A stretch of 41,343 bases of DNA from IMG/VR virus record IMGVR_UViG_3300021354_000013, positions 1 through 41,343 of that record; one strand, written 5' to 3'. Source of the stretch: a virus. Its lineage: Duplodnaviria > Caudoviricetes. A program made the position numbers and the translations under genes. Below, one piece after another: positions 1 through 41,343 of this stretch (position 1 is its first letter; every line of letters begins with the position of its first letter). Below the pieces are notes generated by a model. The model worked only from the letters and a program-made list of their open reading frames with translations, did no database searches and was not told where the DNA came from.

Positions 1-131
1 GGGCAAAAGGCCATGCAGAAAGACGCAAAAGAAAAGCGTCGGGAAGTGAGAGCTGAAGCGCGCGTCGAGGTGCTATCACAGCCGGTCTACCGCGCGTGGA
101 CATTGTTGACGGCTAAGGTTAACCCTGAGGA
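1..131. repeat. Terminal direct repeat (left copy), most likely an assembly overlap of a circular or circularly permuted genome
   Basis: nt 6-131 are identical to 41218-41343; nt 1-5 differ at 2 positions from 41213-41217. Confidence 0.95.
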
Positions 132-3100
132 TCGTCTGCCTAAACCTACTGTCACCAAGTCAAATCCTAACATAGTAACGCCGGAGATCGATTCGCTTTT
201 TGCGGCGGTCGCAAAACTAGGCGGGCTTAACAAAGCCGATCTGATATCGCAATGGGGTTTAGATCCTGCGACAAAACAATACTCAGGTGTGTTTGGTAAA
301 CCGGTGTGGCGTAGAGAAGGAGGCTTAACGGTTGATGGGATGCTCGAGGCCTTAATACCTTACGGATATCTCACCTTAGACGAACACGGTAAGCCTGAAG
401 ACAGTCGCGAATTTGAAGAGTTATTTGATCGCGAGTTGCGAGGTGAGCCACAGTATTCGGTTGAACATGCGTATGACCGCGACCAAGAGCAACGCGCCGG
501 CAGTCACATTGCTAACCCTTATGCGTTAAACGCAGTGCGCTTTGATAAAGGAGATTTGATTGGGGCCGGCGTATCGGACGAAGACCTTAACAAGCTGCAA
601 GCGTACAAGATGGTGGCAAAAAGCGACGGCATTAACCAAGACATTATTGCGGATCTTATTTTAGACGAGAACGGCAATCCTGAATTTACGTCGGGTGATG
701 ACTTGATCCAGCAGTTAATGGCCGCAACACCACCGAATGAAGAGATCGAGGCGCTGACGGACTTGCGTATGCTTGAGAAGTACGGCGACCTATCATCACC
801 TGACGCGATTGAGAAAGCGGCGGATCTTGCGATTCATAACGAAGCGCGCGTTAAGATGGTGGCCACCGAAGCCAATGCTTTGGCAAAGGCAACAGGCGGT
901 CGCAAAATACTAGCGAGCGCAGCTAAGATGTTGGCCGCAACCACCATTGGACGTAAAAAAATACGCGATCTTTTACCGAGCGTTTTTACCAATGCAGAGG
1001 TGAAAGCGGCTAAGTCTGCCGAGAAGTACATGCGCGCGAAAGATCTTGTCAACGCCGCCGCTGAGAAACGCAACCAACTTTTTAACATGTATGCGGCTAA
1101 GGCTGCGATGGACGCTAAAGACGAGGTGGAAAAAGGCCTACGCTATCTGAAGAAATTTAACGGTGTTATTAAAGGCATTGATGTTGATTACGCCGATCAG
1201 ATTGCCGCGATACTAAGCCGGTTTGATTTGCGCAAGATTAGCAATAAAGAAGTTGATCGCCGAAAATCTTTAGCTGCGTGGCTGGTCTCTCAAGAAGATG
1301 AGGGTTTTGTTCCGGATCTACCGGAGCATGTCACCAACGAAGCCTTTATCAAATCATATAAAGAACTGACGGTTGAAGAGTTTAGAGGCGTGCTGGATTC
1401 GGTCAGGCAGATTGAACACTTAGGCCGTCTTAAAAAGAAATTGCTACTGGCTAAAGACCAACGCGAGTTTGAAGCCATCCGCGATGAGATTGTGCAAAGC
1501 ATTAACGACAACTCACAAGGCCGTATCGCCAACACCCGCACTATTAACACCGGTGTTGAACAGGCTAAGAAAAAATGGGGCGCTTTTGCCTGGGGACATG
1601 CCAAAGTGGCGACCTTGGTTAAGGTGCTGGATGGTGGAAATATCGGCGGACCGGTTTGGGAATTTTTAGTAAGGCCCGCCAATGAGCGAGGTGATTGGGA
1701 AACCACGCAGCGCGCTGAGGCAACGCTTGCGCTTGCCGAGATTATGGCACCAGTGTTTAAGCTGGGTAAGATGGGCGGTAAAGGCGTAAAGTTTCCTGGT
1801 ATTGATCGCAGCTTTAACCGTGAAGCGCGTATTGCGATTGCACTTAATGTCGGTAACAAAGGCAATTTGCAACGCTTGTTAGGTGGTGAAGGCTGGAGTC
1901 TGCCGCAGATAGCACCAATCTTACAGTCTTTGACACGGGATGAATGGCTTGCTGTGCAAGCAATATGGGATCACTTTGAGACTTACCGTCCGCTGATTGC
2001 TGCAAAAGAGCGCAGAGTCTATGGTAAAGAACCTAACTGGGTAGAACCTACCCCCTTCAACATGACGACCGCAGACGGGGAAACCGTCAACCTACGCGGC
2101 GGGTATTACCCGATTAAGTATGATCCTGCGGCCAGCCAACGAGCAGAAGAACATAGCGACGCGGAAGCGGCAAAGCGCCAACTACAAGGGGCGTACACTT
2201 CAGCGACGACACGTCGCAGCTTCACCAAAGCGCGTGCAGAAGAAGTGAAAGGTAGACCTTTGCTTCACTCGTTGACTGGTGTTTATTCGGGTGTGAATGA
2301 CGTGATTCACGATCTGGCTTGGCATGAGTGGTTGATTGATACGAATCGCTTGATCAAGAATAACGCGATTGATACTGCGATTCGTCAACACTATGGACCG
2401 GAATTTAAAAACCAATTTAAGACGTGGACAAGCGCGATTGCTGAAGGTGAAAAAGGATCTGACAATACGGTTGATATTGCGCTTTCTAAAATTCGCCAAG
2501 GCGTGAGCGTATCGGGTTTAGGGTTTAACGTCATGTCTGCGGCGATGCAACCGACTGGATTTACGCAGTCTGTGTCAGTGGTAGGCGCAAAATGGATAGG
2601 TATAGGCGTTAGCCGATATTTAGCGGATATCAAAGGATCTACGCAATCCGTCAACGAAATGTCAGAGTTTATGGCCAACCGCACGCGTACTCGATTTAGA
2701 GAATTGAACGAGTTACGCAATTCGGTTGAGGATCAATCGCCGTATAAAGAATGGTTAGGCCGATACGCATACTTTTTAATGATGCGCTGCCAACAGATGG
2801 TCGATGTCCCCACCTGGATAGGCGCGTATGAGAAAGCGCAAGCCAATGGTGAGATAGAAGAACGTGCAATCGCTTTAGCCGATCAAGCCGTGATTGACTC
2901 CCAGGGCAGCGGGATGTTGAAAGATCTCTCTGCAATTGAGCGAGGTGGCGCTGCGCAAAAACTCTTTACCGTGTTTTATTCGTACATGAATACCGCGCTT
3001 AACATTGGGATTGGTAAAACGATGTCGGCGGAGATCGGGAAACGTAAAGCAAAACTAGCGGCGGATTACCTTTTGCTTTACGTTTTACCGCCGGTATTAG

Positions 3101-3513
3101 GGTTTGCTATTAAAGAAGCGCTCACCCCAACGGGTGACGATGACGACGATTATTGGGAGAAGCTACCTAAGCGTCTAGCTGCTAACCAAATCGACTATCT
3201 GATGGGTTTGATGGTGATAGTGCGCGAGTTTTCTGAGGCGGCTAAATTGATGGCCGGCGTAGAGGATCATAAGCAAGATTACCAAGGACCGGCAGGTGTG
3301 CGAATGATTGCGGATACCGTCAAGTTTGGGGAGCAATTAGGCCAAGGTGAATTTGATACGCCATTCCGCAAGGCTTTTGTCAATTTGATGGGTGATGCTT
3401 TTGCCCTACCAAGCGCTCAGATCAACCGAACTGTCACCGGAATAGAAGCGATATCCGAGGGCAAAACGTCCAATCCTGCGGCGATAGCATTCGGGTTTAA
3501 AGAGAAGCATTGA
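13..3513 (+). CDS. C-terminal 1166 aa of the giant internal virion/DNA-ejection protein (continuation of the ORF starting at 34562)
   Basis: ATG at 13 corresponds to in-frame ATG 41225 of the open frame from 34562; mostly helical sequence; position before the tail fibre as in BPP-1/epsilon15-like podoviruses. Confidence 0.9.
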   Translation: MQKDAKEKRREVRAEARVEVLSQPVYRAWTLLTAKVNPEDRLPKPTVTKSNPNIVTPEIDSLFAAVAKLGGLNKADLISQWGLDPATKQYSGVFGKPVWRREGGLTVDGMLEALIPYGYLTLDEHGKPEDSREFEELFDRELRGEPQYSVEHAYDRDQEQRAGSHIANPYALNAVRFDKGDLIGAGVSDEDLNKLQAYKMVAKSDGINQDIIADLILDENGNPEFTSGDDLIQQLMAATPPNEEIEALTDLRMLEKYGDLSSPDAIEKAADLAIHNEARVKMVATEANALAKATGGRKILASAAKMLAATTIGRKKIRDLLPSVFTNAEVKAAKSAEKYMRAKDLVNAAAEKRNQLFNMYAAKAAMDAKDEVEKGLRYLKKFNGVIKGIDVDYADQIAAILSRFDLRKISNKEVDRRKSLAAWLVSQEDEGFVPDLPEHVTNEAFIKSYKELTVEEFRGVLDSVRQIEHLGRLKKKLLLAKDQREFEAIRDEIVQSINDNSQGRIANTRTINTGVEQAKKKWGAFAWGHAKVATLVKVLDGGNIGGPVWEFLVRPANERGDWETTQRAEATLALAEIMAPVFKLGKMGGKGVKFPGIDRSFNREARIAIALNVGNKGNLQRLLGGEGWSLPQIAPILQSLTRDEWLAVQAIWDHFETYRPLIAAKERRVYGKEPNWVEPTPFNMTTADGETVNLRGGYYPIKYDPAASQRAEEHSDAEAAKRQLQGAYTSATTRRSFTKARAEEVKGRPLLHSLTGVYSGVNDVIHDLAWHEWLIDTNRLIKNNAIDTAIRQHYGPEFKNQFKTWTSAIAEGEKGSDNTVDIALSKIRQGVSVSGLGFNVMSAAMQPTGFTQSVSVVGAKWIGIGVSRYLADIKGSTQSVNEMSEFMANRTRTRFRELNELRNSVEDQSPYKEWLGRYAYFLMMRCQQMVDVPTWIGAYEKAQANGEIEERAIALADQAVIDSQGSGMLKDLSAIERGGAAQKLFTVFYSYMNTALNIGIGKTMSAEIGKRKAKLAADYLLLYVLPPVLGFAIKEALTPTGDDDDDYWEKLPKRLAANQIDYLMGLMVIVREFSEAAKLMAGVEDHKQDYQGPAGVRMIADTVKFGEQLGQGEFDTPFRKAFVNLMGDAFALPSAQINRTVTGIEAISEGKTSNPAAIAFGFKEKH

Positions 3514-32141: not shown

Positions 32142-34565
32142 ATGCCTAGAGTCCCAACATACGACAGTTTTCAGGCGACCCCTAACACCTTACCGCAATC
32201 GTTTGCCAAAGCCCCTGATGTTTTAGTCGATCCAGGGCAGACCGGTAAAGTCATGGGCGAAGCGCTTACCCATGCGGGCAATACCTTTGGCAAGATCGTG
32301 CAAGACATGAACGAGACCGCCAATCAATTACGATTAGATGATGCGGCCAACCAGCTTCGAGAAGGCGCGCGTAAATTACAGTTTGATAAAGACGTCGGTT
32401 ACACCAACCTCAAAGGCAAGAGCGCGCTTGACCGGCCAGATGGCTTGTCCCTTTCAGATGAGTATGGCGGAAAACTACAAGAGCATTCGGATCAAATTGC
32501 CGCGTCTTTGGGGAATGACCAACAGCGACAAGCATTTGCGCATTTCTCTGGCGGGTTTGTACAAGGCTTTAAGAGCAATGTATCCGCGCACGAGGTGAAA
32601 GAATTTACCGATTACGGATTGTCTGTATCGGACGGAATACAAAAAGGCGCTATCGATGATATCGGCTTAAATTGGAACAATCCGGCTGCGGTCAACGATG
32701 CGGTGTCACGCATCCAGGCAGAGACCTACCGGCAAGCACAACTCTTAGGCAAGTCGGCCGAATGGCAAGACGCGCAAGCCAAAACTATGACCAGCCTAGC
32801 GCACAAGACGGCGCTGATGACGGCGCTGGATAACAACGATCCTTCCTACGCAGATAGCTATCTCAAGCGCTACGCCTCACAAATGCACGCGGACGATATT
32901 CTTACTGTAAAGGGCCATATCACCAAAGAGATGGACAACCGCATCGGGATGACCGCGTCGGCCGAAGTGATCCAAAAAATTCAACCACAGATCCAAGTGG
33001 GGGACGGGGAACGGGCCTTTAATATTCTACTAGACGCGGAAACCGGCAATAAACAATTTGCTGGCAAGTTTTACGGATTACGCCCAGACGGCACCCCAAA
33101 AGGTTCTGGGTATTTCGGCGAGCTTAAACGCCCTGATGGTGGCGTGATGACCGAGTTTAGCGTAGGTGTGAACATCAAAGGAAAGGAGATGGATATTCCG
33201 ACGCTGGTTCCTACGCTTACCCAAAAAGAAAAAGACATCATCTTGAATATTAAAGACGGTGAAAACCTGCCGGATTCAATCATTCAAAAAGCCGTAGATC
33301 ATGCAAACAAGCGCATCGATCAAGGGAAGTCTGTTTGGGCGGATACCCCACAACCCATTACTAGCGTTAAGGGTGCCGTAGGTGCTGCCCAAGTGATGCC
33401 GCCCACTGGACCGGAAGCGGCCGAGCTTGCGGGGTTGCCTTGGGATGAGAATCGATTTAAATACAACAAGGGCTATAACAAAGCCTTGGGCTTGGCGTAT
33501 TTCCAAAAGCAATTACAAGATAACAGTGGGGATTTGGCCAAAGCCTATGCCGCGTATAACGCAGGACCTGGCGCTTTAAAAGAAGCCACCAAAAAAGCCG
33601 ACAAAGAAGGCGGCGACTGGCTGTCTTACCTACCCAAAGAGACACAGGATTATGTAGCCGGCAACATGAAAGCATATGGCTCAGGTGAAGGTAAACCCCC
33701 GCGCGCCACCTTTGAAGAAATAGACGCGCAGCTGCGGGCGGATCCGCGTATTGCCGGCAATCCAGATCGATACAAGATTGCCAGGGCGGATGCTAAGCAA
33801 CGCTTTGAAGAGCAAACGCAAGCAATCAAACAGCGCGATGATGACGCGCTGGCAACCGCGCTTAAAGGTGTTGAACAAAACGGTGGGCGCTTTAGCGACC
33901 TACCGCCAAGCGTACGCGCAGCGGTACCGGTCGATAAGCGCGACGCCGTCATCAACTACGCGCAGAAAGTGGCTAAGGGGGATGACACCACCAGTCCTTG
34001 GCTCTACTCCAAGATGTCTAACGACCCCATGAAAGATCCTTACACTGGTGAAACCATGTCGGATAGCGCGTTCTACCGCTATCGTCCTGAGTTATCCGAT
34101 GCGGATTTTCGTAAGTTTACCGACGAGCGCAATAAGCGCTCTGGTAAGACAGCGGGCAGCGGTGGTCCTGGGGATCTAAATAGCGCGGCGATTAAGCAGA
34201 ACCTAGATACCAATCTCTGGAATTTAGGTATCAAACCTAATCCTAAAAGCGATTCGGACAACGAGCGCGTGGGTGCTATCCGTAAATTTGTAGATGACTA
34301 TTTTATCGCGGCGCAACGTGAAGCCGGTAAGAAATTTACCGATGCTGAAGTAGCAACACACCTAAACAATCTCTTTGCAAAAAACGAAACCTTTAAGCGT
34401 TTTTGGTCAAGCGATACCAAAGGACCGTTACTCTCAATGAAGATTGGCGACATCCCGCCTGGGGATAAAACCGCGATCAAAGAGTCTTTCAAAAAACAAG
34501 GTGTCAGCGATCCGACCAATGCCCAAGTCCTCAATGCCTTCTTTATGACCAAGGTTACTAAATGA
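32142..34565 (+). CDS. Internal virion protein with soluble lytic transglycosylase domain
   Basis: MPRVPTYD start; ETG...KGAVGAAQVMP.T, AYAAYNAGPG, LPKETQDYV. Confidence 0.88.
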   Translation: MPRVPTYDSFQATPNTLPQSFAKAPDVLVDPGQTGKVMGEALTHAGNTFGKIVQDMNETANQLRLDDAANQLREGARKLQFDKDVGYTNLKGKSALDRPDGLSLSDEYGGKLQEHSDQIAASLGNDQQRQAFAHFSGGFVQGFKSNVSAHEVKEFTDYGLSVSDGIQKGAIDDIGLNWNNPAAVNDAVSRIQAETYRQAQLLGKSAEWQDAQAKTMTSLAHKTALMTALDNNDPSYADSYLKRYASQMHADDILTVKGHITKEMDNRIGMTASAEVIQKIQPQIQVGDGERAFNILLDAETGNKQFAGKFYGLRPDGTPKGSGYFGELKRPDGGVMTEFSVGVNIKGKEMDIPTLVPTLTQKEKDIILNIKDGENLPDSIIQKAVDHANKRIDQGKSVWADTPQPITSVKGAVGAAQVMPPTGPEAAELAGLPWDENRFKYNKGYNKALGLAYFQKQLQDNSGDLAKAYAAYNAGPGALKEATKKADKEGGDWLSYLPKETQDYVAGNMKAYGSGEGKPPRATFEEIDAQLRADPRIAGNPDRYKIARADAKQRFEEQTQAIKQRDDDALATALKGVEQNGGRFSDLPPSVRAAVPVDKRDAVINYAQKVAKGDDTTSPWLYSKMSNDPMKDPYTGETMSDSAFYRYRPELSDADFRKFTDERNKRSGKTAGSGGPGDLNSAAIKQNLDTNLWNLGIKPNPKSDSDNERVGAIRKFVDDYFIAAQREAGKKFTDAEVATHLNNLFAKNETFKRFWSSDTKGPLLSMKIGDIPPGDKTAIKESFKKQGVSDPTNAQVLNAFFMTKVTK

Positions 34566-37500
34566 GCAGTGAATTTGATTCAGCCGTAACAAACGTAATT
34601 AATAACGAAACCCCTGCACCAGATAAAGCGCAAGCTGCGCGAGAAGGCTATGTGGGTGCTGTCGACACCAATCCAGATGTTTATGCGGAGATGCAACGCG
34701 TGGCGCGTCGAGTAGGCGTGCCTACCAATGTAGCGATGGATATGCCTCAAGAAGTTAAGAAGCAAGCGAGCATCGGCTCAATTAATTTTGACACACTTGC
34801 GCAAACCAATCCCGCTACTGCTTCATTGTTAGCGGACACCGACAAAGCCAAAGTCGCGCATGATGATGTGCCTAATCTACAAGCGACCGAGCGCACCTTT
34901 ATCGAAAGCGCAATAGAACCAATTCAGCGAGGCTATGCGCAAGGACGCGCGGGGCTATCGTTGATGCTGCACTCAATGGGGCTTTTCAAAGGCCTGGATG
35001 CGCAGCGCAAAGCAGCGGCTGAAGCCAACGGAATCCCTTACGATCCGACGGTGGAAACGTCGAACATGATGGCGCAAAGACAGCGCGAAATTGAAAAGTA
35101 TCCAATCCCAGAAGACATTCAAAGAGGCATGGACGAGATCAGCAAAGCGCCGGATTTTTCGTCTGCGTTTGAAAGTGCGCTTTACAACAAGCGTGCCGTA
35201 TTAGAAACCACACTGCAATCGATTGGCACCAGTTTTCCGGCGCTGGCAACAACCGCCGGCGGATCTGTCTTTGGTCCACTAGGCACTGCGACCGGTGCCG
35301 GCATGGGCAGTTTTGCGGTGGAATACGGCAGCACCATGCAAGACGTGTTAGCCGACAAGGGCATGAATCCCACCAACGCGATGGATATACACCGCGTATT
35401 AAACGATCCTACCATCATGGATGCGGCGCGGGACAAAGCGCTTAAGCGCGGGATTCCGGTTGCAATCTTTGACGCCCTTACCGCGGGGGTAGCCGGCAAA
35501 CTGTTAGCCGGTGCTAAAGCTAACCCAACAAGCGTGGCAAGTCGTGTTGGCGGCGAGCTGGCGGTACAGGCGACCGGAGGCGCAGCGGGTGAAGCGGCAG
35601 CGCAAGCGGTTACCGGCGAATATAAACCAGGTGATATTTTGCTTGAAGCATTAGCCGAATTACCTACCGGATTGGTGGAGATTCCAGGCAATTACAAAGA
35701 CGCATTAGCCAAAGCGCAGCGCTCAGAAGATAACGCGCGATTTGTTGAAACCATAAACAATCTTTCCGAAGCGAGCAAAGTTTTACAACGCGATCCAGAA
35801 ACATTTGAGGCGTTTGTTAATCACGCCGCCGAAGATGGACCTGTAGAAAAAGTATTTATTGATGCTAACGCGTTGATGCAATCGGGTGTTGCTGATCAAA
35901 TCGCAGCAGTGTCTCCCTCGGTTGCCGAACAGTTACCTTTAGCGCAAAGCACAGGCGGGCAGATTGCCATTCCTGTTGGGGAATACGCTTCTAAAATTGC
36001 ACCCACTGAGTACGCACAAGCGTTAGTCGATCATCTTAAAACAAGCCCTGAAGAATTTAGCCGCGCTGAAGCGGCAGACTTCATGCAAAACCACCAGGAA
36101 GAATTACAAAAAGAGATCGAAAGATCACTGGGCAATTCACAATTGAGCGACGAGTTTAAACAATCCACTTCACGCTTAAAGGAGAAATTCCAAACGGAGT
36201 TAGACGCGCTTGGCCACCATACTCCCGATGTCAACAAAGCGTATTCCACCTTGTTGGGGGATTTCTTTGCGGTCAACGCGGCCAAGATGGGCATGTCACC
36301 TGAAGAATTGCACAATCAGTACGCGGTCCGCTTTGCCTCAGACTTACAGCAAGGCTATGACCAAAGCCGTGTGGATATGCATTTCAAAGACGTGACCAAA
36401 AGAATTGAAGGGTTAACGATTGCTGCTAATCAGTTGAAAGAAGGCAAGATTACACGGGAAGACTACGACAGATTAGTTAACGAATTAAAACCAGTAACAC
36501 CATATGCCGAGACCCCTACACCATCTTCTCTTGAGGATATGCAAACATCTTTAACATCGGATAAGGTTCCTAAGATAGGGGAAGCGGCAAGAACTTTAAA
36601 AACAGGAGATGCGGTAGGTTTGCGTTTAGACATCCCAGCATATCGAGATCATGGCGTATGGGTTGTGTCTATTCATGGCGCACGAGCATCAGATAAAAGT
36701 GGAATGGCGGGTAAAGCCACGGGGTACGACAGTGTTGCTTCTGTTACTGATGCTCGATTTGGAATAAATGAAAACGCAGGACTTAACATCGCGGCGGGTA
36801 AATCTAAAGCAACTATAGCCACCGTGGAAGGAAAATGGAAACCAATAACACCGGAAGAAGCGCATGCTAGAGTGACAGAGGCTTTGACTGATCCAGCGTG
36901 GACCCAGGTGGGAATGGATCCAGAACGACACAGCTATTTTTACGATAGAACAACAATGGAGCCCGTCGTTAGCGCGGATGAGGTTATTCAAATCGGCCCG
37001 TTGGTTATGGCGAAGAATCCTGTTTACGCGCCCAAAAATCATTTTTTATACCAAAGCAGAAACCTACAAACAGATACTCCAGCGTTTAAGAATTGGTTCG
37101 GTCAATCTAAAGTGGTGGATGCCGAGGGTAAACCTTTGGTGGTTTATCACGGTACAGAAGCAGATTTTGATACATTTGACCTTAACAAGATGGGCCTTAA
37201 TGGCTTGGCGATCGGCCCTGGATTCTACTTTGTAAATTCTAAATTAGTTGCCAGCGGGTATGGGGATAAATCCCTTGCTGTGTATTTGAAAGCGAATAAC
37301 CCAACTCTAAGTGTTACAAAGAAAACCATTACCAAAGCACAAGTAACAAAGATCATTGAAGACATGGAAAAGGAAGATGAGTATTTTCTTTCCAACTATG
37401 GTGATATTGAATACGAAGGACGTCGTGCTGTTTTAAACGCCGCGCTTGACGATATTTACACGCAATCTAAACACGATGCTGAAATAATAGGTTCGCTAAT

Positions 37501-40500
37501 CAACGTGGGCGGCGTTGATCGGGATAGCGTTATGGAGTCTGTTATTGCTCGTACTAAAAAAGACGGGTTTATCGTTGACGCAAGCATAGCCTCTCATGCG
37601 GCAAATGAAGGCGATAAAGTTTATGTTGTTCTAACACCTACTCAAATCAAATCTGCCACCGGTAACAACGGCAACTTTGATCCTAACGATGCGAATATTT
37701 ACAATCAAAGCGCAGTGGTTGAAGGCGCTAATGCCATCACTGGCGATCTTGACCGTGTAAACCCTGACGTAAAGGACGCAGTAGAAAGCCGAATTGCCCG
37801 CATGGGTGAAGAGGAACAGCAACGTGTACGAGCAAATCTAGGGGAACATAAAGGTACTGCGTGGGCAGCTGCTGCTATCAAAGGTATGGCGTACCGCGAA
37901 ATGCTAGAACGTGCGATGGATGGCCAAGACATATCTAACCTAGAGCGAAATGCAATCTGGGGAAAGCAAGATATGGCGGCTACCAAACTTGTTAAAGCAT
38001 TTAAGAAATATCCAGAGCATGGCGCTCGTGTTCTAAAACTGCTTCTTAATGCCTATGATTTTATTGGGGGAAACCGTAAAGCTGAGAACGATGTTTCAAC
38101 ATCCTTCACCAACTGTGATCCTAGTAAAGCGTGTGCGATCCATTGTTACGCCGCGACCGGTAACGCTAGGCCAAATGAAATAGCCAAATCGGAATTTACC
38201 GAATTTATGCTAGAGCGATTTCCGCAAGAGATGGCGGATAAACTGGCTTCAGACTATCTGGCAACGGAGGCCGGTAAGGCGGGGCTATCTTTACGGTTAA
38301 ACGACAAGGGGGATCTTTCACCCGCGCAGGTGCATGTTATCGAATTGCTAAACACTAAAGGAATAGCAATTCAGGTTTTTTCAAAACGTCCGGATTTATT
38401 GCGATCTATCTCTGATCTCAATTTAAAGATGCTTTCCATTGATGGCACCAACATGGAATTGGCCGATGCAAATCCTGATTTGCGTTTAGCTGTCACGATT
38501 ACAGACGAAACCACCGAAGAGATGTTAATGCCGATACACGACCGTGTATCCGTATATTTACCGGTTAACCTTAAAGGTAAGGCAATTACCAAAGAAGAGC
38601 TTAAAGCGCGCTTTCCAAATTTATATAGCCGAATGGCAAAAGAGAATCTTTGTCCAGTGGATGGGGGGAAACTCGAAACTAAGCCAGGCACTTCGTTTGT
38701 TGATATCCGTGACAAGACCGCAGACAAAGGCGTGTGGACATGTACGGCCTGTGATCTTTATGGCGCGGCAGGATGTTTTAAAGGGGATCGGCAAACTAAC
38801 CAACGAAAAGCACAAACAATTTCTTTGTCTGATTTGACTAAAGAATTACAATTATCAAAGGTACGCAAGGAGCTTCAGTCTAACCTGGAGACACTTTTAC
38901 AATTAGGGGGAATAGATGGAGAACTTTACAGCCAACTTAGCCAAGCACTTTCTAGCGGGCAACGCGCGGTTCTCGAAATTGCTGACACCGAAAGAGAAGG
39001 CAGAGGCGCTGAAAGCGCAAGCGGCCAGACTCAAACAATCGAGGGAAGCGGAAGCGGAACTGGACAGCCTTCTGGCGGAGAATACAACCAAGGCAACATC
39101 GTTCCTTTATCAAAACGATTCAACACCAGAAAAGTAGAGTCATACTTTCAATTCGCCGGCGTACAAGCCTGGACCGCCGACACACATTCTTTAACTTCCG
39201 CCGTTGAACGTATTAAAAAAGGTGAAAACCCAGAACAAGTCCGCAAAGAAACCGGCTGGCATATTGGTGCGGATGGTATGTGGCGATTTGAGATTTCCGA
39301 CGACAAAGCGCAATTTAACACCCCATACAACGATTGGACCGCCGATCGGATTCGCGAAGAAGTAAAAGTGTATTCTAATTTCGAAGGTAAAGAAGGCACC
39401 TATAAAGCTATTTTTAGAGAGGGTACGCCGGATCATTTTGGTGCCTTTGGCCGATCCGAAGAAGAAGCAGTTAATAATGTTGTTAGAAATGTTAGAAAGA
39501 AACGATTTGCGGATGAGGGCTTTGATATCTCTAAAGTCTCTGACGGGGATGCACACGTCTTATCTCACGTTTTAAAACACCCAGAATTGTTTGATGCCTA
39601 CCCTTCTTTGTTGAACATGCGTGTGCATTTTGAAGAAAACACTTACGCTTATCGGGGAAAGCTAGATCCCGACACAGATGTGATTACTTTGGCAATTACT
39701 GGTGATGAACAGCAAATGCTGTCCACATTGTTGCACGAGATTCAGCACGCGATTCAAGAAAAAGAGGGCTTTGGCAAGGGGGGAAACTCAGATAAACAGT
39801 TTACGTACGCAGTTAAAACTGCTTTAAAGGAGCTGTCAAACCAACAACAACGAAAAATTGCGGAATGGACAAATGACAATTTTGACAAGATTGTTGATTA
39901 CAACGTCGCCGCCAAAATAGCAAGATATGGATTGATGTACGAATCCGCGCAACGACTAATTGGATACGCCAACCGCAGCGAACCGTCTGGGGTATTTCGA
40001 TTGGTAAGGCAAGAGATGCAATGGCTTTATGCGGATGAGTTTCGGGAAAATGATAAAGCACAAGATCTTCAGCGCGATTTTTATAACATTCCTAAACGCC
40101 ATAAAAAGAACGAACGAAATGCCTTTATAGGTGATATGGCGTTTCGCGCGGGGCAAGTGTTGTTAGATGAAATTGGTCCGATGTATCAAGGGATGTTTAA
40201 GAACGATCCGCGCACCTTGAAAGGGATGTTAAAGGCGCTGGAAAGGGAAGCGGACAAAAAGCGCCAAGCGTTATCTCCATTGCACGATTTGCAAAAGCAA
40301 GCGCGGACGACCGAAAACGTAAGTCGTGCGCATGCTTCCTCAACACCGTTCGATGTATATCAATCTTTAGCAGGTGAGGTGGAGGCAAGAAACACCCAAG
40401 CGCGCCAGGCAATGACACCGGAAGAGCGTCGCAATACTTCACCTAAGCAAACAGCGGATGTGCCCGTTGATAAAATTATAGTTAGATTTGGTGGTTTGGA

Positions 40501-41343
40501 GATCCAAGCACCAATGGCGTCGATTGCGGAGCAGGCAACCTTTGACCAAGGCGCCGCCGTCAACCGAGGAAGTTTTAACCCAACCAACCTAACAATCTCG
40601 CTCTTAAAGAACGCGGATCTTTCGACGTTCTTACATGAGACAGGGCATTTCTTCTTAGAAATGCAAACGGATCTGGCTGCAAGGCTAGAACAGGAAGCTG
40701 GACTTTTTGGCATAGAAAACCTAAAGCCTGGCGAACAGCAGATTATCAAAGATGCTAATGCCATTTTAAATTGGTTTGGTTTACAAGATCTGGATACCTG
40801 GCACCGCATGACATTAGAAGAGAAGCGCGGATTCCATGAGCAATTTGCGCGCGGCTTTGAAGCCTATCTGTTTGAAGGTAATGCGCCAAGCATTGAACTT
40901 CAACCCTTATTCCAACGCTTTAAAGAATGGCTAAAACGCGTTTATAAATCCATCGAGGCGCTTAATGTTGAGTTGACCGATGAGGTGAGAGGCGTGTTTG
41001 ATCGCATGATTGCATCAGAAGAGCAGATCCAACTTGCAGAGCAAGCGCGCAGTATGATGCCTCTTTTCACGACACTCGATGCGGCACCCATGACGGCCGA
41101 TGAGTTTAGGGAATATCAGAACCAACAGCAAGAAGCGACTGCGACCGCCGTTGATGAACTCGACGCGCGGGGATTGCGTGACATGAAATGGCTGCGCAAC
41201 GCGCGAAGCAAGGTGCTAAAGGCCATGCAGAAAGACGCAAAAGAAAAGCGTCGGGAAGTGAGAGCTGAAGCGCGCGTCGAGGTGCTATCACAGCCGGTCT
41301 ACCGCGCGTGGACATTGTTGACGGCTAAGGTTAACCCTGAGGA
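34562..41343 (+). CDS. Giant internal virion / polyvalent protein, ~3387 aa across the circular junction (34562 to 3513); domains: unknown, ADP-ribosyltransferase, Gp88-like Fe-S, LPD23 plus zincin, second HExxH
   Basis: ATGA overlap with the SLT gene stop; the frame runs to the window end (no stop-terminated ORF in this frame in the track; segments translated by hand are open) and is in frame with the ATG of 13..3513. Confidence 0.9.
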   Translation, partial: MSSEFDSAVTNVINNETPAPDKAQAAREGYVGAVDTNPDVYAEMQRVARRVGVPTNVAMDMPQEVKKQASIGSINFDTLAQTNPATASLLADTDKAKVAHDDVPNLQATERTFIESAIEPIQRGYAQGRAGLSLMLHSMGLFKGLDAQRKAAAEANGIPYDPTVETSNMMAQRQREIEKYPIPEDIQRGMDEISKAPDFSSAFESALYNKRAVLETTLQSIGTSFPALATTAGGSVFGPLGTATGAGMGSFAVEYGSTMQDVLADKGMNPTNAMDIHRVLNDPTIMDAARDKALKRGIPVAIFDALTAGVAGKLLAGAKANPTSVASRVGGELAVQATGGAAGEAAAQAVTGEYKPGDILLEALAELPTGLVEIPGNYKDALAKAQRSEDNARFVETINNLSEASKVLQRDPETFEAFVNHAAEDGPVEKVFIDANALMQSGVADQIAAVSPSVAEQLPLAQSTGGQIAIPVGEYASKIAPTEYAQALVDHLKTSPEEFSRAEAADFMQNHQEELQKEIERSLGNSQLSDEFKQSTSRLKEKFQTELDALGHHTPDVNKAYSTLLGDFFAVNAAKMGMSPEELHNQYAVRFASDLQQGYDQSRVDMHFKDVTKRIEGLTIAANQLKEGKITREDYDRLVNELKPVTPYAETPTPSSLEDMQTSLTSDKVPKIGEAARTLKTGDAVGLRLDIPAYRDHGVWVVSIHGARASDKSGMAGKATGYDSVASVTDARFGINENAGLNIAAGKSKATIATVEGKWKPITPEEAHARVTEALTDPAWTQVGMDPERHSYFYDRTTMEPVVSADEVIQIGPLVMAKNPVYAPKNHFLYQSRNLQTDTPAFKNWFGQSKVVDAEGKPLVVYHGTEADFDTFDLNKMGLNGLAIGPGFYFVNSKLVASGYGDKSLAVYLKANNPTLSVTKKTITKAQVTKIIEDMEKEDEYFLSNYGDIEYEGRRAVLNAALDDIYTQSKHDAEIIGSLINVGGVDRDSVMESVIARTKKDGFIVDASIASHAANEGDKVYVVLTPTQIKSATGNNGNFDPNDANIYNQSAVVEGANAITGDLDRVNPDVKDAVESRIARMGEEEQQRVRANLGEHKGTAWAAAAIKGMAYREMLERAMDGQDISNLERNAIWGKQDMAATKLVKAFKKYPEHGARVLKLLLNAYDFIGGNRKAENDVSTSFTNCDPSKACAIHCYAATGNARPNEIAKSEFTEFMLERFPQEMADKLASDYLATEAGKAGLSLRLNDKGDLSPAQVHVIELLNTKGIAIQVFSKRPDLLRSISDLNLKMLSIDGTNMELADANPDLRLAVTITDETTEEMLMPIHDRVSVYLPVNLKGKAITKEELKARFPNLYSRMAKENLCPVDGGKLETKPGTSFVDIRDKTADKGVWTCTACDLYGAAGCFKGDRQTNQRKAQTISLSDLTKELQLSKVRKELQSNLETLLQLGGIDGELYSQLSQALSSGQRAVLEIADTEREGRGAESASGQTQTIEGSGSGTGQPSGGEYNQGNIVPLSKRFNTRKVESYFQFAGVQAWTADTHSLTSAVERIKKGENPEQVRKETGWHIGADGMWRFEISDDKAQFNTPYNDWTADRIREEVKVYSNFEGKEGTYKAIFREGTPDHFGAFGRSEEEAVNNVVRNVRKKRFADEGFDISKVSDGDAHVLSHVLKHPELFDAYPSLLNMRVHFEENTYAYRGKLDPDTDVITLAITGDEQQMLSTLLHEIQHAIQEKEGFGKGGNSDKQFTYAVKTALKELSNQQQRKIAEWTNDNFDKIVDYNVAAKIARYGLMYESAQRLIGYANRSEPSGVFRLVRQEMQWLYADEFRENDKAQDLQRDFYNIPKRHKKNERNAFIGDMAFRAGQVLLDEIGPMYQGMFKNDPRTLKGMLKALEREADKKRQALSPLHDLQKQARTTENVSRAHASSTPFDVYQSLAGEVEARNTQARQAMTPEERRNTSPKQTADVPVDKIIVRFGGLEIQAPMASIAEQATFDQGAAVNRGSFNPTNLTISLLKNADLSTFLHETGHFFLEMQTDLAARLEQEAGLFGIENLKPGEQQIIKDANAILNWFGLQDLDTWHRMTLEEKRGFHEQFARGFEAYLFEGNAPSIELQPLFQRFKEWLKRVYKSIEALNVELTDEVRGVFDRMIASEEQIQLAEQARSMMPLFTTLDAAPMTADEFREYQNQQQEATATAVDELDARGLRDMKWLRNARSKVLKAMQKDAKEKRREVRAEARVEVLSQPVYRAWTLLTAKVNPE
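38916..39137 (+). CDS. Candidate overprinted 73-aa helical protein inside the giant gene
   Basis: AGGGGG 5 nt before ATG; TACAAT at 38898; host frame here is largely a Gly/Ser linker. Confidence 0.45.
   Translation: MENFTANLAKHFLAGNARFSKLLTPKEKAEALKAQAARLKQSREAEAELDSLLAENTTKATSFLYQNDSTPEK
41213..41343. repeat. Terminal direct repeat (right copy)
   Basis: Matches nt 1-131. Confidence 0.95.

Follow-up and report, generated by a model that had tools for sequence, protein, structure and literature searches.

Immediately after the segment for a GP88-family domain, a giant phage gene almost certainly contains a small gene in its +1 frame, and the helical protein encoded by the small gene probably binds that domain. 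By analogy with known cargo-partner pairs, there is about an even chance that the small protein is a cognate inhibitor that holds a putative iron-sulfur enzyme in check. The reality of the gene is supported mainly by its selection pattern and conservation across homologous loci, and the binding by a predicted complex.

The window, i.e., the whole 41,343-nt stretch of DNA that was analyzed, is a circularly permuted phage contig whose ends overlap by 131 nt (41213–41343 = 1–131), and its genes include those for terminase, head, tail, and internal virion proteins. Across this overlap, the ORF at positions 13–3513 joins the giant gene as its C-terminal third and is not a separate gene. The domains encoded by the giant gene are LPD22, gp82-like, ART-PolyVal, GP88-like, LPD23, and metallopeptidase domains (assigned by Pfam for LPD22, ART-PolyVal, GP88, LPD23, and the metallopeptidase), and the C-terminal part of the giant protein shares 66% identity with Bbp10 of Bordetella phage BPP-1. 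With several LPD, ART, and peptidase domains and a position among virion genes, the giant gene encodes a phage polyvalent protein in the sense of PMC5512222. The sequencing runs containing the stretch were DNA runs from lake, freshwater, and mat samples, with no RNA run among those listed. The features discussed below are collected in Table 1.

Table 1. Positions in the window of the nested gene, its signals, and the surrounding modules
Feature	Position	Strand	Remarks
Giant polyvalent protein gene	34562..41343, continuing at 1–3513 via the terminal overlap	+	~3,390 codons in total
GP88-family domain, predicted radical-SAM-like partial barrel	37709..38800	+	Pfam, model, fold comparison
Host-frame helical hairpin ending the cassette	38795..38956	+	Encodes the Shine-Dalgarno sequence and start of the nested gene; part of the predicted interface
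Candidate internal sigma-70 promoter, TTGTCT-16-TACAAT	38825..38852	+	9/12, weak match
Shine-Dalgarno sequence AGGGGG	38905..38910	+	−9.3 kcal/mol
Nested +1 gene	38916..39137	+	73 aa; conserved core is codons 1–59 (38916–39092); tail from the next module
Module junction ACCAAGG, YNQ/G	39087..39093, repeated at 40545–40551	+	Comparison with L003 and other contigs
LPD23 and metallopeptidase module	39094..40544	+	Absent at this junction in L003 and in contigs of three other studies

The upstream domain matched the Pfam family GP88 (PF17338) with 27.2 bits against a cut-off of 24.4 when the domain was searched, and below the cut-off when the whole protein was searched, and 28 of the 31 domain members matched the GP88 profile at E ≤ 0.05. 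In the fold comparison, its structural model (pLDDT 87) came closest among solved folds to viperin-like enzymes, at middling Z scores of 8.0–8.5 (rmsd 3.4–3.7 over 188–195 aligned residues), with TYW1 and spore photoproduct lyase tied at Z 7.7. The best 14 matches of the fold search (Z 6.6–7.8) are presumably all radical SAM enzymes; Foldseek on the PDB gave no match for the domain at E ≤ 0.001. A Cx5Cx3C-Y motif at 38114–38149, standing in place of the canonical radical SAM motif CxxxCxxC, is invariant in 31/31 members, and this cysteine triad may bind a cluster. Also invariant are four further cysteines (38651, 38741, 38750, and 38774) and the residues K120, R192, K222, and R223, and we infer that the substrate of the domain bears phosphate. 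The domain matches the GP88 profile, and its predicted partial barrel can be aligned at these middling scores with that of viperin-like radical SAM enzymes, but it differs from the latter in an identity of only 6–14%, in an extra N-terminal helical lobe, and in the four further invariant cysteines. Many GP88-domain proteins of 200–400 residues occur in Atlas and BFVD; a search of literature listings and abstracts returned no description of GP88 function, and the passages of PMC7824862 that were searched contain neither “radical SAM” nor “viperin.”

Behind this domain, the Shine-Dalgarno hexamer, the ATG, and the 73-codon +1 ORF lie exactly where the first-pass annotation had placed them, and a TAG at 38913–38915 in the +1 frame immediately precedes the ATG. 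As it had also described, the host frame across the nested ORF is of low complexity (rich in Gly, Ser, and Glu), and the small protein is modeled as helical, with helices at residues 4–22 and 25–66 and a mean pLDDT of 84.9. The TACAAT at 38898..38903 (+), which had been taken for a −10-like element, is present, yet it ends 12 nt before the ATG, too close to be a −10 box, and it is not conserved: a hexamer matching 5 of the 6 positions at that offset was found in 3 of 22 homologues, two of them near-identical. A sigma-70 scan, the source of the weak candidate at 38825–38852, yielded 7 matches against 8.9 expected in shuffled sequences, i.e., no excess. A −10-like box 39–96 nt upstream of the nested start occurred in 12 of 26 loci (five from one clade) versus 7% of background windows. 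Over the 26 loci, the start codon, picked from the alignment, was ATG in 25 cases and GTG in one, and the Shine-Dalgarno energy of these related loci had a median of −7.0 kcal/mol compared with −1.85 kcal/mol for a background of 210 ATGs in the +1 frame of the domain, with values of −4 kcal/mol or lower at 24/26 nested loci and at 26% of the background ATGs. In one genome alone, the nested ORF is within the range of chance; the giant gene holds 10 stop-free +1 stretches of at least 45 codons, and when the host protein was synonymously reshuffled, a start and 56 open codons were retained in 13% of trials. It is the conservation across homologues that places the ORF beyond chance.

The first-pass annotation had proposed to compare dN/dS in both frames, and the comparison showed purifying selection in the nested frame and none in the host frame. 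In a codon analysis of 51 gap-free codons from 20 sequences (two near-duplicates were dropped and the most distant loci left out), omega was 0.22 for the nested frame (2dL 138 versus omega = 1) and 1.53 for the host frame at the same codons. The domain itself showed the opposite, with an omega of 0.04 for the host frame and 2.40 for its +1 shadow, and the switch occurs exactly at the nested gene; over the first 15 codons of the nested core, host-frame omega was 0.76. The pairwise pN/pS ratio of the nested frame was below 1 in 16/16 pairs and below that of the host frame in 15/16, while among five disjoint pairs the nested ratio was the lower in 4/5 (p = 0.375). When the window was compared with the locus L003, there were 0 differences in the 177 positions of the nested core and 30 in the 1072 of the domain. 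Given the contrast in omega between the nested and host frames, and its reversal inside the domain, the host frame behaves as the shadow frame here. Therefore, the word “overprinted,” which had been applied to the small gene, probably has the relationship backward: the small gene is what selection maintains, and we infer that the host frame came to read through a two-gene cassette, as opposed to a new gene having arisen on top of an old linker.

Conservation was assessed in 65 loci collected through the upstream domain, which together with the window gave 40 distinct sequences; 37 of these have at least 400 nt downstream of the domain and fall into 27 clusters at 90% domain identity. The first relative of the small protein was a gene-called protein with 76% identity. 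An iterated profile matched 28 of the 40 distinct loci at E ≤ 1e−3, always directly behind the domain, and no off-position copy was detected among 4,686 six-frame segments. BLAST clustering linked 4 further distant loci, raising the number with a nested relative to 32 of the 37 full-length loci (the loci are related, and the linkage counts are not independent), and the nested gene was found behind the domain down to ~37% domain identity. When the profile was built from database proteins only, the position-equivalent frames of 33 loci scored (E ≤ 0.25) better than every off-position match; the database proteins had been found with our own alignment, so this profile is not fully independent. Furthermore, a position-blind filter on Shine-Dalgarno strength and composition kept 32 of 257 nested +1 ORFs, and 27 of these 32 were at this position. 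The ORF and its ribosome-binding site, whose conservation in homologous modules had been suggested as a check, are thus both retained, the latter together with the start codon. In the remaining loci, L058 and L059 have open +1 frames behind the domain without significant similarity, and L049 and L064 gave weak scores for the nested protein. L065 (4640–5100) is a natural exception, in which the domain is present but the longest +1 frame that follows does not exceed 43 codons.

Among 1.84 billion proteins, the small-protein family has 18 representatives of 49–206 aa, which gene callers have recorded as small stand-alone proteins. Searches of Pfam, PHROGs, PDB sequences, BFVD, and Atlas did not connect the small protein with any known family or fold; its members have no Pfam family in common, and the best PHROG occurred in 2/21 of them. 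The search for antitoxin or immunity families gave only a FitA-like match in 1/21 members (E 0.027, 14.9 bits against a cut-off of 27). The small ORF or P0031 as a single-protein query found no match in viral contig DNA, and neither the small protein nor the domain had a match in 50,697 phage records. A degenerate DNA pattern yielded 28 loci, of which 27 belonged to a chance family with no relation to the small gene and the other was the L034 contig, already in the set. One member, P0034 (206 aa, on a Logan contig of 79,988 bp), joins the small-protein sequence, in frame, with the hairpin and linker of the host frame, and is possibly a duplicated or orphan partner cassette.

The limits of the cassette emerged from L003, which is 96% identical to the window over 37050–39093 and rejoins it at 40545, with ACCAAGG at both sites. 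Contigs of three other studies also depart from the window at 39093/39094, and the cassette runs from YNQ at 37708 to YNQ/G at 39093. On this comparison, the LPD23-peptidase module is exchanged at the short shared sequence. L003 also lacks ~36368–37049, the gp82-like region. The first-pass annotation had the ORF stopping just before a YFQ junction and traveling with the cassette; codons 1–59 do travel with it, but the junction is inside the ORF, and because the ORF crosses it, the last 14 codons come from the neighboring module. FLYQ, which had been regarded as the junction motif, sits in this borrowed tail, is present in 1/22 homologues, and is incidental.

The modules flanking the cassette differ between loci. 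In six loci of one clade (L039, L012, L013, L017, L018, and L024), the domain ends its gene with a stop, giving a protein of ~760–930 codons where complete, and the next long ORF, whose 5′ part encodes the hairpin and contains the nested gene, begins at TGATATAATG. In these split loci, the small gene comes after the domain with TGATATAAT and a Shine-Dalgarno sequence, and the ATG of the new ORF overlaps TGATATAAT; this −10 box could serve only the nested gene, 50–59 nt downstream. The six split loci indicate that the small gene keeps to the domain even across a gene boundary. Judged from these arrangements, the unit that moves among different neighbors is a single cassette of the domain, its terminal helical hairpin, and the nested gene, and the earlier proposal that the small gene co-travels with the upstream Fe-S-type domain holds, the linkage persisting across swapped neighbors.

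Complex prediction with the domain, another check that had been proposed, yielded predicted binding: the 1:1 model of the domain (423 aa) with the small protein (62 aa) scored 0.80, versus 0.00 for the best of 3 controls. In a rough calibration, in which own alignments were used, the score mark was reached by 116/157 solved complexes and by 2/215 mismatched pairs. The runs shared at least 75% of contacts, and the pLDDT of the partner was at least 79. Sequence search found no solved relative of either chain, and it is therefore unlikely that the pass reflects memorized structures. On the domain, the predicted interface comprises residues 88–123 and 177–189 and the hairpin at 381–406, many of them variable; it flanks the loop bearing the invariant Lys120 and does not include Cys132/138/142 or the putative active-site motifs DKGD, FSKRP, and SID. 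On the small protein, residues 35, 38, 45, and 49 are among the predicted contacts. With the Cys loop and the central motifs outside the named interface, the model gives no sign of a plugged active site, and an inhibitor in this position would probably act via the Lys120 loop and not as a plug.

If the small protein is a cognate partner of the domain, inhibition is more likely than chaperoning or activation; this tilt comes from the analogy with MuF toxin-immunity pairs and from the logic of making an injected enzyme in the phage's own host. The giant protein would be made late, packaged, and injected, as is known for other polyvalent proteins (PMC5512222), and the small protein, translated from the mRNA of the giant gene, would keep the domain silent in the cell that makes the virions. 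Where a lineage has an internal −10 box, the small protein might also be made soon after injection and switch the enzyme off. Through nesting, the cargo domain would retain its partner gene while the giant reading frame stays intact, and the floppy linker would be the product of reading through the small gene.

A less probable but serious alternative is that the small protein is a required subunit, a folding chaperone, or an activator, needed for solubility of the apo-domain, cluster loading, or refolding after injection; where the locus is split, it might hold together the domain and the hairpin at the start of the next protein. The linkage, the selection, and the complex score fit this possibility as well as they fit an inhibitor. 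The interface, lying on the N-terminal lobe and the C-terminal hairpin away from the Cys loop, also suits it, as do the hairpin that remains with the small gene where the domain ends in a separate gene and the fusion of a small-protein copy to the hairpin in P0034. On the other hand, the many GP88-domain proteins stand against 18 small-family representatives, so GP88 folds probably do not need the small protein in general, and L065 has the domain without it.

It is unlikely that the small gene is real but independent, i.e., an early gene housed in the linker whose product targets the host and is functionally unrelated to the domain. Such a gene would account for the Shine-Dalgarno sequence of its own and the extended −10 box in one clade, and physical linkage by itself yields co-inheritance; however, the gene remains behind one domain through wide divergence while the flanking modules swap, it has no copy elsewhere among the segments searched, and the complex model passes against three controls. 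Less likely still, the +1 frame encodes an alternative C-terminus, entered through ribosomal frameshifting, or else a peptide that the radical-SAM-like domain uses as its substrate. Small peptides encoded nearby are common targets of radical SAM enzymes, and the in-frame fusion to host-frame sequence in P0034 is in keeping with this reading; against frameshifting, a +1-frame stop lies at most 10 codons upstream of the nested start in 20/22 loci and the Shine-Dalgarno spacing suits initiation, and against a substrate, the model names no contacts to the cluster loop. That there is no gene, only a chance open frame from a Gly/Ser/Glu-rich linker, is the least credible explanation, largely refuted by omega (0.22 versus 1.53) and by the conserved protein, Shine-Dalgarno sequence, and start, even though such a frame with a start has a probability of 0.13 in the window alone and spurious short sequences can reach high pLDDT (bioRxiv 10.64898/2026.06.09.728211).

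Returning to the cognate inhibitor, a broader version of this reading is speculative: polyvalent virion proteins would be chains of enzyme-plus-inhibitor cassettes, with the inhibitor genes in the +1 frame of the linkers, and the cassette described here would supply an injected, viperin-like, nucleotide-acting radical SAM enzyme together with its dedicated hidden inhibitor. Further nested +1 ORFs were seen directly behind ddrB-ParB domains in three loci (L059:1431–1610, L061:~2575–2759, and L057:2559–2714), with similarity between the L059 and L061 ORFs. This second nested family fits the chain reading and suggests the same design of cargo plus hidden partner for a second domain. A hidden partner behind the cargo domain would explain how a phage can produce injected enzymes that are harmful to the very host it grows in, and also the filler-like, low-complexity look of the linkers. 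The analysis also yields an unannotated protein family with a specific predicted partner, offers a test case for a hidden layer of genes in giant virion genes, and opens a way into GP88, a family of unknown function, whose domain may become expressible and assayable upon co-expression of the partner. The enzyme module described here likely carries a hidden off-switch or helper that annotation misses.

Genes embedded in the +1 frame of another gene are familiar from lambda Rz1 in Rz, the products of which interact, and from phiX174 E in D. The arrangement described here differs from both in that the outer frame over the overlap gives no sign of purifying selection and acts as a linker, and in that the pair is a mobile domain cassette and not a lysis gene pair. 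The host gene itself resembles the polyvalent proteins of Iyer et al. 2017 (PMC5512222) in its LPD22, ART-PolyVal, LPD23, and metallopeptidase motif, its virion-gene setting, and its domain shuffling; the main text of that paper has no occurrence of “radical,” “gp88,” “overlap,” or “linker,” and its passages on these proteins that were consulted mention no nested partner gene. In MuF toxin genes, a small ORF lies directly after the toxin gene in 89.4% of 191 cases (PMC5576092). Like such toxin-immunity pairs, the present cassette has a virion-linked cargo domain followed directly downstream by a small ORF that is co-inherited with it, and the split loci show that layout; unlike those in PMC5576092, the domain here is usually internal, the small gene is nested out of frame, and the cargo has neither a MuF domain nor a known toxin fold. 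The search of literature listings and abstracts found no description of the small-protein family or of nested partners in polyvalent proteins. What is new relative to these systems is the small-protein family, the reversal of selection from one frame to the other, and a complex prediction that passed for a named cargo domain.
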